Positions 5,805-43,102 of a stretch of DNA of 64,000 nt are shown here, piece by piece; within the stretch, counting starts at the first letter, position 1, and each line of letters starts with the position of its first letter. The stretch comes from an uncultured Bacilli bacterium (GTDB lineage Bacteria; Bacillota_I; Bacilli_A; RF39; UBA660). The notes under the pieces are model-generated. The model did not search any database. It had not been told where the DNA came from and saw nothing but the letters and a program-made list of their open reading frames with translations. Location: assembly GCA_934096125.1 (NCBI GenBank), contig CAKOLB010000001.1:75487-139486 (forward strand). Direction: 5' to 3'. A program made the translations under genes and the position numbers.

Positions 5805-6103
5805 AGTATTCCCTCCTTGCTAACTTTAATATTTTTTTTATAGGTTTGTGATAATTCTTCCAACATCACAATCATATTTTCCATTACCAAATAAGCATCA
5901 TTATTATCTTTTTTTATCATGATATCCAGTTTATCTTTTTTATATTCATAAATTAAATAATCAGCATCAATTCTCAAAGCAGCATTAATGCTTGTCGTCA
6001 CAATTGAAGAAACACTTGCACAAACAATATCCTGCCCCTTGTCAGCATAATCAGCATGACCAGTAATAACAATATGCTTACCCTTAACAACAACCCTAAT
6101 CAT
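5801..6103 (-). CDS. prp: ribosomal-processing cysteine protease Prp (YsxB/DUF464)
   Basis: 100 aa located between rplU and rpmA. GHADY...[11 protein letters not shown] motif with the catalytic His and Cys. Confidence 0.9.
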
Positions 6104-39172: not shown

Positions 39173-39565
39173 ATGAGTGAAAAGAAAAAAGAAATTGAAA
39201 ATTTAAATTGTTATTTAATTACAGCAGCTATGCTTTACATAAAAGAAAACTCTATAGATGATTATCACGATATAGAAGCAATTAATTTATTTAAAGAAAA
39301 ATTTTTAAGCAAAGAAGAACTTACCGACTATGAAGAAATAGTACCTGCAATAACTAGTGAGATAAATAAATCTCAAGACTATAAAATGATATACGATGAT
39401 ATATACCAAACCATAGTTAAACCATTTGTTTCAAAGATAGATAATAGCGAATATAAAAAAGCTTATTTTATCTTTAACAGTAGTTTTCATTCACTAAAAA
39501 ATGCTTATCTTTTGCCTTATATTCAAAGCAGCTTCATTGAAGCATTTAAAAGAGCCAGAGGCTAA
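39173..39565 (+). CDS. hypothetical acidic helical protein (130 aa)
   Basis: AGGAGG RBS 8 nt upstream of the ATG, with its own promoter and terminator. No family recognised. Convergent with the ToxN-like gene. Confidence 0.55.
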   Translation: MSEKKKEIENLNCYLITAAMLYIKENSIDDYHDIEAINLFKEKFLSKEELTDYEEIVPAITSEINKSQDYKMIYDDIYQTIVKPFVSKIDNSEYKKAYFIFNSSFHSLKNAYLLPYIQSSFIEAFKRARG

Positions 39566-39568
39566 AAT

Positions 39569-39597
39569 AAAATCAGGAAATCATTCTGATTTTTTTA
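39569..39597. terminator. bidirectional intrinsic terminator
   Basis: AAAATCAG-9 nt-CTGATTTT followed by TTTATT, directly after the stop at 39565. Confidence 0.6.
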
Positions 39598-39599
39598 TT

Positions 39600-39624
39600 A
39601 AAAAAACTCCACCCTTAGTGAAGT
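39600..39624 (-). terminator. intrinsic terminator following the orphan antitoxin-like repeat
   Basis: Minus strand ACUUCAC-UAAGG-GUGGAGU (7 bp including one G.U) followed by U6. Confidence 0.55.
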
Positions 39625-39631
39625 CTTACCA

Positions 39632-39683
39632 TTTTCGACCAGGATTATTTATACTTCGCACCACCCGGAAGCAACTAACATTT
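39632..39683 (-). repeat. orphan diverged third copy of the 49-nt antitoxin-like repeat
   Basis: TTTTCGACCAGGATTATTTATACTTCGCACCACCCGGAAGCAACTAACATTT aligns at roughly 80% identity with 40290-40341 in the same orientation. The internal 5-bp stem is retained (CCGGG/CCUGG with G.U). Confidence 0.7.
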
Positions 39684-39754
39684 ACATCATCTTTTAAGAT
39701 AATGAATAAGGTATATCATAATAATTAAAATCAAACAACCAGAATTTAATTACT

Positions 39755-40225
39755 TTACTTCCTAAATTCATGTAATAATCTTTCTTTAATAACATCAACA
39801 TCAACAAAAAATAAATCAACCCCTCTATTTTTAAGGCCAATCATATTTCTAAACAAAAAATTAATTTCCATTATCAGATCACTTTGTACATATACAGGAA
39901 CTCCATTAATGGTATGAACATGATCAATATATTTTTCTAAAATTGGAAAAGCATTCTGAAGTAGTATAGCCGAATCTTTACCAGCTACTTTTCTAATAAG
40001 AATTGTATTACAAAAACCATATCGTTTAATTTTATTATTAATTATTTTTTTATATTTTTCAACTTTCGAACTGATTGGAATAAACCACAAGAATTCCTTA
40101 TCTTTGAGAGTAAAATATGTTGGTCTCTTTCGGCCTTTCTCATGGTTACACATTAACTTTTCATCGTTCATAATGGAAAAAAATTCATCCTTAATATGAT
40201 ATAAACATCCAACTTTAATTTTCAT
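39755..40225 (-). CDS. type III toxin-antitoxin system toxin candidate (ToxN/AbiQ/CptN-like endoribonuclease)
   Basis: 156 aa. GGGAGG-N7-ATG at 40225 (the track TTG at 40240 is less likely). It is preceded by tandem RNA repeats and a terminator, the type III TA grammar. The RKRPTYFTL..FLWFIPISSKVEKYKK segment is reminiscent of the AbiQ/ToxN RPY...APLSSPK region. Confidence 0.6.
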   Translation of the reverse strand: MKIKVGCLYHIKDEFFSIMNDEKLMCNHEKGRKRPTYFTLKDKEFLWFIPISSKVEKYKKIINNKIKRYGFCNTILIRKVAGKDSAILLQNAFPILEKYIDHVHTINGVPVYVQSDLIMEINFLFRNMIGLKNRGVDLFFVDVDVIKERLLHEFRK

Positions 40226-40256
40226 TATAGTTCCTCCCAAAACATAATATCATAAA

Positions 40257-40282
40257 GAAAAAAACTTTACAATCTGTAAAGT
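40257..40282 (-). terminator. intrinsic terminator between the antitoxin repeats and the toxin gene
   Basis: Minus strand ACTTTACA-GAT-TGTAAAGT followed by TTTTTTC. Confidence 0.7.
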
Positions 40283-40291
40283 CTATTTATT

Positions 40292-40389
40292 TTCGACTGG
40301 GATCATTTATTAGTCGCACCACCCAGAAGCGAAAAACATTGTCGCCTAGAATCATTTATTAGTCGCACCATCTAGAAGCGAAAAACATT
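40292..40389 (-). ncRNA. tandem 49-nt repeat array (2.0 copies), candidate type III antitoxin RNA
   Basis: Copies at 40292-40340 and 40341-40389. The 39-nt cores ATCATTTATTAGTCGCACCA[C/T]C[C/T]AGAAGCGAAAAACATT are identical except at 2 positions. Those positions covary with 2 positions in the linker (CTGGG/CCCAG versus CTAGA/TCTAG). Confidence 0.7.
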
Positions 40390-40415
40390 TCCACTGTTTC
40401 TCCAACAGTAACATT

Positions 40416-40444
40416 AATATATCACAAGTTTACAGAAAACGCAA
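40416..40444 (-). promoter_or_regulatory. promoter driving the repeat array and toxin
   Basis: Minus strand TTGCGT-17 nt-TATATT with a TG extension (gTGaTATATT). Confidence 0.55.
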
Positions 40445-40483: not shown

Positions 40484-43102
40484 TTAATTCTTGTTTTTAA
40501 TTGCCGATTTAGCGGCAGCCAAAATTGCCACAGGAACTCTAAACGGAGAGCAAGAAACATAATCTAAACCAATCTTATCACAAAATTCGATACTCTTAGG
40601 ATCTCCACCATGTTCACCACAAATTCCTAAACTAATATTCGGCTTAACCATTCTTCCTTTATTTACTCCCATTTGAATTAAAGCCCCTACTCCAGCTTCA
40701 TCAATGCTTGCAAAAGGATCAGATTTAAATATATTCTTTTCATAATAATCCTTTAAGAATTTTCCAGCATCATCTCTACTAAAACCATAAGTAAGCTGTG
40801 TTAAATCATTACTTCCAAAACTAAAGAAGTCTGCTTCATTTGCAAGTTTATCAGCCAGAAGTGCTGCTCTTGGAAGTTCAATCATAGTACCAATTTTATA
40901 TTTGATATCTACTCCAGCTTTCTCTATTATTGAGCTTGCCGTCTTAACAACTATACCTTTTACATATTTAAGCTCTTCTTCATCTCCTACTAAAGGTATC
41001 ATTATCTCAGGCTCTACTAAAACGCCTTTTTGATAAACATTAACGGCCGCTTCTATCAAAGCTCTTGTTTGCATTTCTGCAATTTCCGGATAAGTAATAG
41101 CAAGACGGCAACCTCTATGTCCCATCATAGGATTAAATTCTTTTAATGAAGAAATTATTTCTTCAAGCTCTTCCACTGTTTTTCCAAGACTACTTGCAAG
41201 TTCTGCCACTTCTTCTTTGGTCTTCGGTAAAAACTCATGAAGTGGTGGGTCTAAATAACGAACAACAACTTTATTTGGACTCATCACTGTAAATAGTCCT
41301 TCAAAATCTTCTCTTTGATATGGCAAAATTTCTTCTAAAGCTTTTTCTCTTTCTTCTTTAGTACTTGCACATATCATCTTCCGAAAACTAAATATTCTTT
41401 TTTTATCAAAGAACATATGTTCACTTCGGCATAATCCAATTCCTTCTGCTCCAAAATTTTTTGCCATATTAGCATCTTTAACTGTATCAGCGTTAGCTAG
41501 CACTCCTAGTCTTTTAATTTCCTTTGCCCAAGACATAAACTTTTCAAAGTCTCCACTAATAGAGGCATCAACTAGTTCTATTTTCTTCGCATAGACATTT
41601 CCTGTAGAACCATCAACAGATATATAATCACCTTCATGCAACACTTTTCCATTTTCATTTTTCAAACATCTATTTACTTCATCAACAACTATATTAGCTC
41701 CACTAACGCAAGGAATTCCCATACCTCTTGCAACCACTGCGGCATGACTAGTCATTCCTCCCCGAACTGTTAAAACTCCTTCACTTGAGTGCATACCTTC
41801 GATATCTTCAGGAGAAGTTTCAGTTCTAACTAATATAGAAGGAATATTTTCTCTTTTATTTTCAATCAGTTTTTTGGCATCAAAACATATCACTCCAACC
41901 CCAGCTCCTGGAGAAGCCGCCAGACCACTTGCAAATACTTCTTCATTTTGGAGTTGCATTATATTAAACGTCGGATGAAGAAGGGCATCTAAACTATTTT
42001 CATCCACTCTAAATAAAGCTTCTTCTTTAGTAATAATCCCCTCTTCGACTAAAGATACAGCTATCTTAATTGCTGCCGCAGGCGTTCTCTTACCATTTCT
42101 TGTTTGCAGTATATAAAGCTTTCCATCTTCAATTGTAAACTCCATATCTTGCATATCTTTATAATGTTTTTCAAGCTTCTCAGCAATCATTGCAAACTCT
42201 TCATAAATTTCAGCATTAACTTCTTTTAACTTTTCAATACTCTCAGGTGTTCGAACTCCTGCAACAACATCTTCCCCTTGGGCATTCATCAAATATTCGC
42301 CAAAAAGTTTCTCTTCACCTGTCGCCGGATTTCTTGTGAAAGCTACTCCAGTTCCAGAATTTTCATTTAAGTTACCATAAACCATTTGTTGCACATTAAC
42401 CGCTGTTCCCCAATCATTTGGAATATTATTAATCTTACGATAATATATTGCTCTTTCATTATTCCAACTTTTAAAGACCGCTTTGATCGCTTCAAATAAT
42501 TGCACGTATGGCTCCGATGGAAAATCTTTTCCCTCAAACTCCGTAAACTTTTGTTTAAACATTTCCACAATTTTCTTCATGTCTACTTCATCAAGCTCAT
42601 TATCAAGTTTAACATTTTTTTCAGCTTTTATATCATCAATTATTTTTTCGAACTCACAACGATTATATCCCATTACAACATCTGCATACATTTCAATAAG
42701 TCTTCGATATGAGTCATACATAAATCTTTTATTACCAATTTTTTCGCCATAAACCTCAACTATTTTTTCATTAAGGCCTAGATTAAGAATACTATCCATC
42801 ATCCCCGGCATACTTATTCTCGCCCCACTTCGAACACTTAAAAGAAGGGGATTATTTATATCTCCAAACTTTTTGCCAGTCTTACTTTCAATTATCTCAA
42901 CGGCATTTCTAATTTCTTTTTCAATATTTTCCGAAAGCATCTCTTGATTATTATAATAAAAAGTGCAAGCATCTGTGGAAACGGTAAAACCACTAGGCAC
43001 CGGAAGACCAATTCTCATCATTTCCGCTAAGTTAGCACCTTTACCTCCAAGAATTTCTCTCATATCCTTATTACCTTCATCAAACAAATAAACGTATTTC
43101 AC
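40484..43102 (-). CDS. ppdK: pyruvate, phosphate dikinase
   Basis: 872 aa. ATP-grasp N-terminus, phosphohistidine swivel motif GGMTSHAAVVARG, and a PEP-utilising C-terminal TIM barrel (GSNDLTQ). Confidence 0.97.
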   Translation of the reverse strand: MKYVYLFDEGNKDMREILGGKGANLAEMMRIGLPVPSGFTVSTDACTFYYNNQEMLSENIEKEIRNAVEIIESKTGKKFGDINNPLLLSVRSGARISMPGMMDSILNLGLNEKIVEVYGEKIGNKRFMYDSYRRLIEMYADVVMGYNRCEFEKIIDDIKAEKNVKLDNELDEVDMKKIVEMFKQKFTEFEGKDFPSEPYVQLFEAIKAVFKSWNNERAIYYRKINNIPNDWGTAVNVQQMVYGNLNENSGTGVAFTRNPATGEEKLFGEYLMNAQGEDVVAGVRTPESIEKLKEVNAEIYEEFAMIAEKLEKHYKDMQDMEFTIEDGKLYILQTRNGKRTPAAAIKIAVSLVEEGIITKEEALFRVDENSLDALLHPTFNIMQLQNEEVFASGLAASPGAGVGVICFDAKKLIENKRENIPSILVRTETSPEDIEGMHSSEGVLTVRGGMTSHAAVVARGMGIPCVSGANIVVDEVNRCLKNENGKVLHEGDYISVDGSTGNVYAKKIELVDASISGDFEKFMSWAKEIKRLGVLANADTVKDANMAKNFGAEGIGLCRSEHMFFDKKRIFSFRKMICASTKEEREKALEEILPYQREDFEGLFTVMSPNKVVVRYLDPPLHEFLPKTKEEVAELASSLGKTVEELEEIISSLKEFNPMMGHRGCRLAITYPEIAEMQTRALIEAAVNVYQKGVLVEPEIMIPLVGDEEELKYVKGIVVKTASSIIEKAGVDIKYKIGTMIELPRAALLADKLANEADFFSFGSNDLTQLTYGFSRDDAGKFLKDYYEKNIFKSDPFASIDEAGVGALIQMGVNKGRMVKPNISLGICGEHGGDPKSIEFCDKIGLDYVSCSPFRVPVAILAAAKSAIKNKN

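Follow-up and report, generated by a model that had tools for sequence, protein, structure and literature searches.

A chromosomal locus attributed to CptIN, a type III toxin–antitoxin family, with an additional toxin-less antitoxin unit, in an uncultured Bacilli bacterium

A stretch of 64,000 nucleotides (nt) from an uncultured Bacilli bacterium (assembly GCA_934096125.1, contig CAKOLB010000001.1, positions 75,487 to 139,486), referred to here as the window, contains on its minus strand a compact locus that is assigned to the type III toxin–antitoxin systems of the CptIN family. In the direction of transcription, the locus comprises a predicted promoter (40416–40444), a leader hairpin (40391–40411), two head-to-tail repeat units of 49 nt each, namely R1 (40341–40389) and R2 (40292–40340), an intrinsic terminator (40258–40282), a ribosome-binding site GGGAGG located 7 nt before the ATG (40233–40238) and an open reading frame (ORF) of 156 aa (39755–40225; ATG at 40225, the stop codon ending at 39755). 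The units and the ORF are designated here as cptI and cptN, respectively. The original prediction had listed the promoter, the two 49-nt repeats, the terminator, the ribosome-binding site and the ORF as parts of a type III toxin–antitoxin locus. All of these elements were confirmed base by base, each was found to be conserved in relatives, and the assignment to type III is borne out by the sequence and the fold of the protein, by covariation in the RNA and by the conservation of these features in some 80 related loci. The prediction did not include a third, diverged unit, R3 (39634–39682), which lies downstream of cptN and is accompanied by a promoter-like site, a leader hairpin and a terminator of its own.

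The product of cptN matched the NCBIfam CptIN equivalog NF047359.1 with 159.5 bits (cutoff 90, E = 5e-47) over profile positions 1–150 of 150. A phmmer comparison with the crystallised CptN of Eubacterium rectale (CptN-Er, 4RMO_A) gave E = 2e-20 over residues 8–145, at 38% identity. The structure of the toxin was modelled with AlphaFold; an input of 30 sequences that were 65–72% identical led to a predicted local distance difference test score (pLDDT) of 39, and the addition of E. rectale-clade sequences raised it to 88.4, with a predicted template modelling (TM) score (pTM) of 0.82. The fold search with this model again returned 4RMO_A as the top PDB match (TM 0.82/0.83, root-mean-square deviation 2.4 Å, E = 2e-11), and the next matches had a TM of about 0.5 or less.

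The original prediction had described the ORF as ToxN/AbiQ-like and proposed a profile search and a structure comparison. For these families, Pfam PF13958 (ToxN_toxin) stayed below its threshold, with 16 bits where 25 are required (E = 0.014), and the PADLOC AbiQ profile gave E = 0.011; the weak profile similarity extended over residues 10–105. The model was compared with AbiQ (4GLK, TM 0.51/0.48) and with ToxN of Bacillus thuringiensis (4ATO, TM 0.45/0.42), which scored no better than MazF-type toxins. Membership in the ToxN/AbiQ family was therefore rejected, and the strong CptN scores beside these marginal ones allow us to attribute the protein to the CptN family by both profile and fold, with kinship to ToxN and AbiQ at the superfamily level only. 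The prediction had itself allowed for a CptIN-like system, and this alternative proved to be the right one. No TenpN-type match appeared in the Pfam, NCBIfam and PADLOC scans, in whose libraries the presence of a TenpN model was unconfirmed; the strong CptN assignment makes this point moot. The remark that the RNA component would escape ORF-based annotation is a fair one; the toxin, however, would be named by the NCBI pipeline.

In order to evaluate the conservation of the locus, 80 related loci (L001–L080) were collected from one-genome-per-species collections; their toxins are 61–71% identical to that of the window, and nearly all of them originate from metagenome-assembled genomes of uncultured gut bacteria labelled as 'Bacilli', 'Tenericutes' or 'Mycoplasma'. 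At least one unit was located upstream of the toxin gene in all 78 loci for which upstream sequence was available, and exactly two units with a period of 48–51 nt were present in 74 of the 78. Among 75 intact toxin ORFs, the median pairwise ratio of nonsynonymous to synonymous substitution rates (dN/dS) was 0.14 and the maximum was 0.35 (1,998 pairs). Judged by these ratios, the toxin is under purifying selection.

The two upstream units are 88% identical to each other. A search of the whole window with the family profile revealed exactly three unit copies (E = 1.6e-19, 4e-18 and 4e-15), the third being R3, and the core GGTGCGA occurs three times in the 64 kb, every time within a unit copy. 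The array was found by repeat finding and by the profile search, but it was not reported by Tandem Repeats Finder, as is expected for an array of only two copies. Rfam contains no family that overlaps the units, even at E values up to 10, and gave only chance-level matches elsewhere.

An alignment of 92 distinct units showed that the loop AUAAAU is invariant and that the unit junction YGA↓(A/C)AAUG (the arrow marks the boundary) is conserved. The units can be folded into an H-type pseudoknot with stem 1 (S1) (Y)UCGC/GCGA(R) and stem 2 (S2) CYRGR/YCYRG. In the alignment, 96.3% of the cells of this structure were paired and two-sided changes were found in seven of the ten pairs (122 cells). As a control, the 3' partners were slid by 1–3 columns, and pairing fell to 23–60%. 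The S2 covariation is visible within the window itself: R1, with all pairs intact and S1 UCGC/GCGA, has CUAGA/UCUAG, R2 has the compensatory CUGGG/CCCAG, and R3 has CCGGG/CCUGG. Folding by minimum free energy (MFE) suggested a nested hairpin instead. The pseudoknot was preferred to it, since none of the four outer pairs that the hairpin adds changes in a compensatory manner and 65 of the 92 units leave one of these pairs open.

A structured pair of RNAs that immediately precedes a terminator and an ORF resembles tandem riboswitches, and the covariation backs a conserved fold, so the units could be cis-regulatory RNAs of the riboswitch or attenuator type that act on the ORF via the terminator. 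However, this is highly improbable, given that the Rfam search was negative, that the downstream ORF encodes a CptN toxin and that the unit neither overlaps nor competes with the terminator stem. In addition, some units have a promoter and a terminator to themselves but lack a gene downstream, and the units are homologous to the E. rectale RNA CptI-Er, which is a processed antitoxin by both structure and genetics.

To compare the units with this RNA, an E. rectale-type locus (L091) whose toxin is 97% identical to the crystallised CptN-Er was retrieved by a protein search and contig look-up. It contains two exact 45-nt units, and the frame ending in G44-A45 reads AAGUUUACCACUGACCGAUAUGUGGUAUAUAAAUGGUCGGGUUGA. 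In this frame, the unit fits all residue numbers given for CptI-Er (PMC4627078), including G13 in loop 1 (L1), G22–24, A27–G35 in loop 2 (L2), the kink at U30 and the scissile A45. Alignment of L091 with the units of the window showed no change at A29-U30-A31-A32-A33-U34 or at the terminal G44-A45; mutation of A29 or U30 abolishes the antitoxicity of CptI-Er (PMC4627078). The shared loop, the terminal GA and the common architecture allow us to conclude that the units of the window are homologues of CptI. By alignment to CptI-Er, the predicted cut sites at the GA of the junctions lie near 40390, after A40342 and after A40293, and the predicted processed unit in the CptI-Er cleavage frame corresponds to 40341–40293 (CAAUG...GUCGA).

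The similarity to the E. rectale system (4RMO; PMC4627078) thus includes several levels. The toxins have the same fold, many core residues are common, and the catalytic Ser-Ser pair is invariant across both the window clade and the E. rectale clade. Both loci, like the cptIN family in general (PMC3401426), are chromosomal and consist of a promoter, two tandem units, a terminator, a ribosome-binding site and the toxin gene. Both RNAs form an H-type pseudoknot with a short L1 and a long A-rich L2 containing AUAAAU(G), and both carry a single-stranded 3' tail of 4–5 nt ending in GA, with the junction (G)UUGA/UCGA. The differences are that the unit of the window is 49 nt long (48–51 nt in its clade) instead of 45 nt, that its 5' tail is longer, that L1 consists of 2 nt instead of 1 and that the stem sequences are unrelated. 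Also, the window clade has a leader hairpin and an extended −10-like motif upstream of the toxin gene, both of which are absent from L091, and the window has the additional toxin-less unit. The 33 published cptIN loci have units of 40–48 nt in 1.9–3.4 copies (PMC3401426). The length of 49 nt, on which the suggestion of a new subfamily had been based, exceeds this range by 1 nt only, and the units align with CptI-Er; this suggestion was therefore not retained. Note that a gene for an RNA_ligase-domain protein (PF09414) is located directly upstream of cptIN in two E. rectale-type loci (L091, 99–1028; L092, 144–1073), and other genes occupy this place in L093. With a neighbouring ribonuclease whose products end in 2',3'-cyclic phosphates, an RNA ligase could point to a coupling to RNA repair.

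The predicted cptI promoter consists of the −35 element TTGCGT (40444–40439), a 17-nt spacer and the −10 element TATATT (40421–40416) with an upstream TG (40424–40423), and it is in register with the family consensus TTGACA-17-TATATT derived from 66 distinct aligned upstream sequences. The leader hairpin between the −10 element and R1, ACUGUUGG...ACAGUGG, has an MFE of −7.1 kcal/mol (z −3.1). Hairpins of at least 4 bp were found at the same place in 62 of the 66 distinct relatives, with a mean z of −3.1 and with arms whose sequences vary or covary; this element may be a 5'-end stabiliser or may present the first cut site. The terminator between cptI and cptN is formed by ACTTTACA-GAT-TGTAAAGT at 40282–40264, followed by T7 to 40258, which gives an 8-bp stem, a GAU loop and U7 (folding z −2.3). 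A hairpin and a U-tract follow the last unit in essentially all relatives, mostly with a gap of 72–75 nt to the ATG, and a GGAG-type ribosome-binding site is kept in them.

A consensus scanner made no call at the cptI promoter, because its −35 element matches the consensus at just three of six positions, and rejected the cptI terminator, because the stem holds only two G-C pairs; neither of the window terminators, after R2 and after R3, was called. Given the weak −35 element and the AT-rich stems, these elements were judged by conservation and folding. Between the terminator and the ribosome-binding site, the extended −10-like motif TG-a-TATTAT was found at 40244–40252 (−), which the scanner reported as TTGTAA-17-TATTAT with TG. 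The pattern TGnTAnnnT is present in 55 of 69 distinct segments preceding the ATG, against a background of 17%, and in 41 of them the distance from its end to the ATG is exactly 19 nt. The motif may be a separate toxin promoter, which would yield a near-leaderless mRNA, or else a site of regulation or of cleavage.

Taken together, the sequence elements, the protein family, the homology and covarying fold of the RNA, the conserved architecture and the purifying selection are the basis for regarding the locus as a chromosomal CptIN-family type III toxin–antitoxin system of an uncultured low-GC gut Bacilli-type bacterium, with a probability of roughly 0.88. What is presumed here on how the RNA is processed and where exactly it is cut, on inhibition and its stoichiometry, on toxicity and on the role in physiology follows the analogy with the CptIN family. 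According to this analogy, the sigma-A-type promoter would produce a short transcript with the leader hairpin, the two CptI units and the intrinsic terminator. Termination after the second unit would be partial, and read-through would yield the cptN mRNA, of which the weak extended −10 promoter just past the terminator could be a second source. CptN, a predicted endoribonuclease of the MazF/Kid fold by homology with the crystallised E. rectale CptIN, would cut the precursor at the conserved YGA junctions, releasing unit-length RNAs, each of which would form the pseudoknot described above, with AUAAAU in its A-rich loop. The pseudoknots would fill the active sites of the toxin monomers with their single-stranded ends and close an inactive protein–RNA ring. 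If transcription of the locus stopped, the protein would outlast the RNA, and free CptN would cut the RNA of the cell or of an invader and bring growth to a halt.

A number of observations weigh against this interpretation. At the active site, Arg53 of the Ser-Ser/Thr-Arg triad of CptN-Er is replaced by Lys throughout the window clade, a conserved His stands in for Tyr104, which specifies adenine, Asp81 aligns with a gap of one residue and Ser85, which is Ser in the toxin of the window, is Ala in most relatives; the Lys and His replacements had not been pointed out before for this locus. Because of these departures, the cleavage specificity may differ from that of CptN-Er, and catalysis is presumed. 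In the RNA, the first junction of the window reads GGA↓AAUG rather than YGA↓MAAUG, and the exact cut site is placed solely by alignment. In addition, 4 nt (UGGU) lie between the 5' strand of S2 and the 3' strand of S1, compared with 3 nt in CptI-Er, and together with units that are 4 nt longer this means that the 2:2 ring geometry should not be assumed. The −35 element TTGCGT is weaker than the family TTGACA, although the −10 element is TG-extended. Finally, protection from phages has not been demonstrated for any CptIN system, and two cptIN loci tested in E. coli conferred no resistance (PMC3401426, PMC4627078).

The active-site differences and the weakened −35 element would also be expected of a decaying or domesticated remnant in which the toxin has lost its nuclease activity and the repeats persist as non-functional sequence. 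We consider such decay to be very unlikely. Lys and His are conserved across a large clade, and Lys at the equivalent basic position is a chemically conservative replacement. Since the ORFs of the 75 relatives are intact and their median dN/dS is low, the differences are not taken as a sign of decay. Compensatory substitutions maintain both RNA stems, and the two-unit architecture is retained in nearly all of the loci.

A comparison with the better studied type III systems, namely ToxIN of P. atrosepticum and B. thuringiensis and AbiQ/antiQ of L. lactis, indicated the same gene order, a MazF/Kid-like core fold and, by inference from the family, the same logic, in which a repeat RNA is processed by its endoribonuclease and inhibits it. 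Unlike in these systems, the toxin belongs to the CptN family and the units are 49 nt long; ToxI units have 34–36 nt and form triplex pseudoknots in triangular 3:3 complexes. Phage defence was demonstrated for ToxIN of P. atrosepticum and for AbiQ, but not for CptIN, so the label of abortive infection given in the original prediction is not established for this family. The E. rectale CptIN system was shown to stabilise a plasmid (PMC3401426, PMC4627078).

The genomic setting was analyzed next to the locus itself. The ppdK gene, encoding pyruvate phosphate dikinase (PPDK; window 40484–43102, −), is located directly upstream of cptIN, and the same arrangement was found in about 30 of the distant loci, in genomes whose PPDK proteins are just 59–74% identical. 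Thus, cptIN holds a conserved chromosomal position across the lineage, an uncommon feature in a module that is presumed to be mobile. The guanine-plus-cytosine (GC) content of the locus is similar to that of its flanks, and this, together with the ppdK synteny, makes a recent mobile insertion unlikely; the locus is regarded as long-standing. A phage origin was rejected, as tblastn gave no match in 50,697 phage records. Relatives of the toxin encoded by plasmids are distant (28–43% identity, 14 records). They include proteins of plasmids of Clostridium perfringens, Megamonas, Oscillibacter and Fusobacterium (e.g., NZ_CP075965.1, 9095–9577), which are annotated only as hypothetical proteins; in the 2012 survey, cptIN was found exclusively on chromosomes (PMC3401426).

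The third unit, R3, lies 76 nt past the stop codon of cptN. It is 80% identical to R2, and the 83-nt block consisting of R3 and its terminator is 75% identical to R2 and its terminator. The promoter-like site of this cassette (39710–39738, −; TTGTTT, 17 nt, TG-a-TATACC) is weak and lacks the final T of the −10 element. It is followed by a leader hairpin (39685–39704, −; CAUUAUCU-UAAA-AGAUGAUG) with an MFE of −6.4 kcal/mol (z −3.95), and the spacing from the promoter-like site to the hairpin and the unit is the same as in the main cassette. The terminator (GACUUCAC...GGUGGAGU and U7; folding z −3.8) is located at 39600–39627 (−). R3 retains all ten pseudoknot pairs, two of them as G-U; the loop AUAAAU is unchanged, and a GA↓AAAUG junction is present at either end. 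It deviates at several positions that are otherwise near-invariant, with a 5' tail UUAG instead of UUUU and the loop AGU instead of CUA. Back to back with the R3 terminator lies another terminator (39569–39596, +), which belongs to a convergent 130-aa ORF (39173–39565, +). This ORF matched nothing in Pfam, NCBIfam or PADLOC, and it was seen in same-species contigs only; an Rfam match to SpF36 at 39565–39609 was dismissed, since it is merely the terminator of this ORF.

The related loci contain arrangements from which such a unit could be derived. Two complete cptIN cassettes in tandem were found in four loci (L010, L034, L054 and L026). Toxin-less cassettes with one or two units were found in five others, namely L003 (units at 5852–5952), L005 (2742–2841), L047 (1073–1121), L049 (1097–1147) and L057 (1801–1844). 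They comprise a promoter, a leader hairpin, the unit or units and a terminator, and that of L005 also keeps a ribosome-binding site and a truncated ORF. Such solitary cptI cassettes recur in about 6% of the related loci. Because relatives carry both full tandem cassettes and toxin-less ones, R3 is most likely what is left of a second cptIN cassette that stood in tandem with the first and lost its toxin gene. Loci with full repeats and truncated toxins were already noted by Blower et al. 2012 (PMC3401426).

At the same time, no terminator-like hairpin with a U-run was found between the stop codon of cptN and R3 in the window, and the R3 terminator is the sole terminator downstream of cptN on the minus strand. 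It would thus probably end the cptN mRNA as well. The absence of a terminator in this stretch places R3 probably within the 3' untranslated region (3'UTR) of cptN, so that a functional role is possible. Each cptN mRNA would then carry an antitoxin unit in its 3'UTR, to be released by CptN cutting; the cut would strip the protective 3' terminator hairpin and result in a one-to-one coupling of toxin message and antitoxin and in a negative feedback on toxin synthesis. In favour of this, the pseudoknot pairs, the loop and the junctions named above are kept in R3, its S2 differs from that of R2 by a compensatory pair and a wobble, and a single CptI-Er unit is fully antitoxic (PMC4627078). R3 was also present in all ten same-species contigs. 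However, these contigs are about 99% identical, so this conservation is uninformative on selection. A unit at +76 is found in this species only; in others, the toxin-less units lie 190–2400 nt off or upstream and look like cassette remnants. Finally, near-invariant positions are changed in R3, and CptI RNAs are highly cognate-specific, so the resident CptN may fail to be bound by R3. A functional R3 is therefore regarded as rather doubtful, and the cassette relic is preferred. If R3 were functional, stoichiometric coupling and autoregulation of this kind would be new, as they were not described for type III systems.

The Pectobacterium phage PhiTE encodes a pseudo-ToxI, that is, ToxI-like repeats without a toxin, which it uses to escape the host toxin. 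R3 and the five toxin-less units of the related loci are similar to it in having no toxin gene of their own beside them. Unlike the phage-borne repeats, R3 is chromosomal, is located directly 3' of a toxin gene of its own family and looks like a cassette remnant. Solitary cptI cassettes could act as stand-alone 'anti-addiction' antitoxin genes. In literature searches of incomplete coverage, neither chromosomal type III repeats that lack a toxin nor a toxin promoter inside such a locus were found to be described.

The locus alters nothing in principle, since the structure of a CptIN complex has been solved by crystallography and NCBI curates a model for the family. Nor does this locus alone make it easier to tell whether CptIN serves in phage defence or in locus stabilisation. 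The analysis documents a CptIN clade that is large (more than 2,000 proteins) and coherent, in genomes of uncultured gut bacteria of the Bacilli or 'Tenericutes' type, often at a fixed place on the chromosome beside ppdK. It also provides a CptI secondary structure for this clade that is backed by covariation, with the AUAAAU loop in common with E. rectale despite unrelated stems and a toxin identity of 38%. These data are useful for work on how RNA and protein co-evolve, and they can serve to build a covariance model of CptI, which is missing from Rfam. Testable details of how type III systems are regulated and decay are offered by the active-site substitutions, the leader hairpin, the possible separate toxin promoter and the recurrent toxin-less units.

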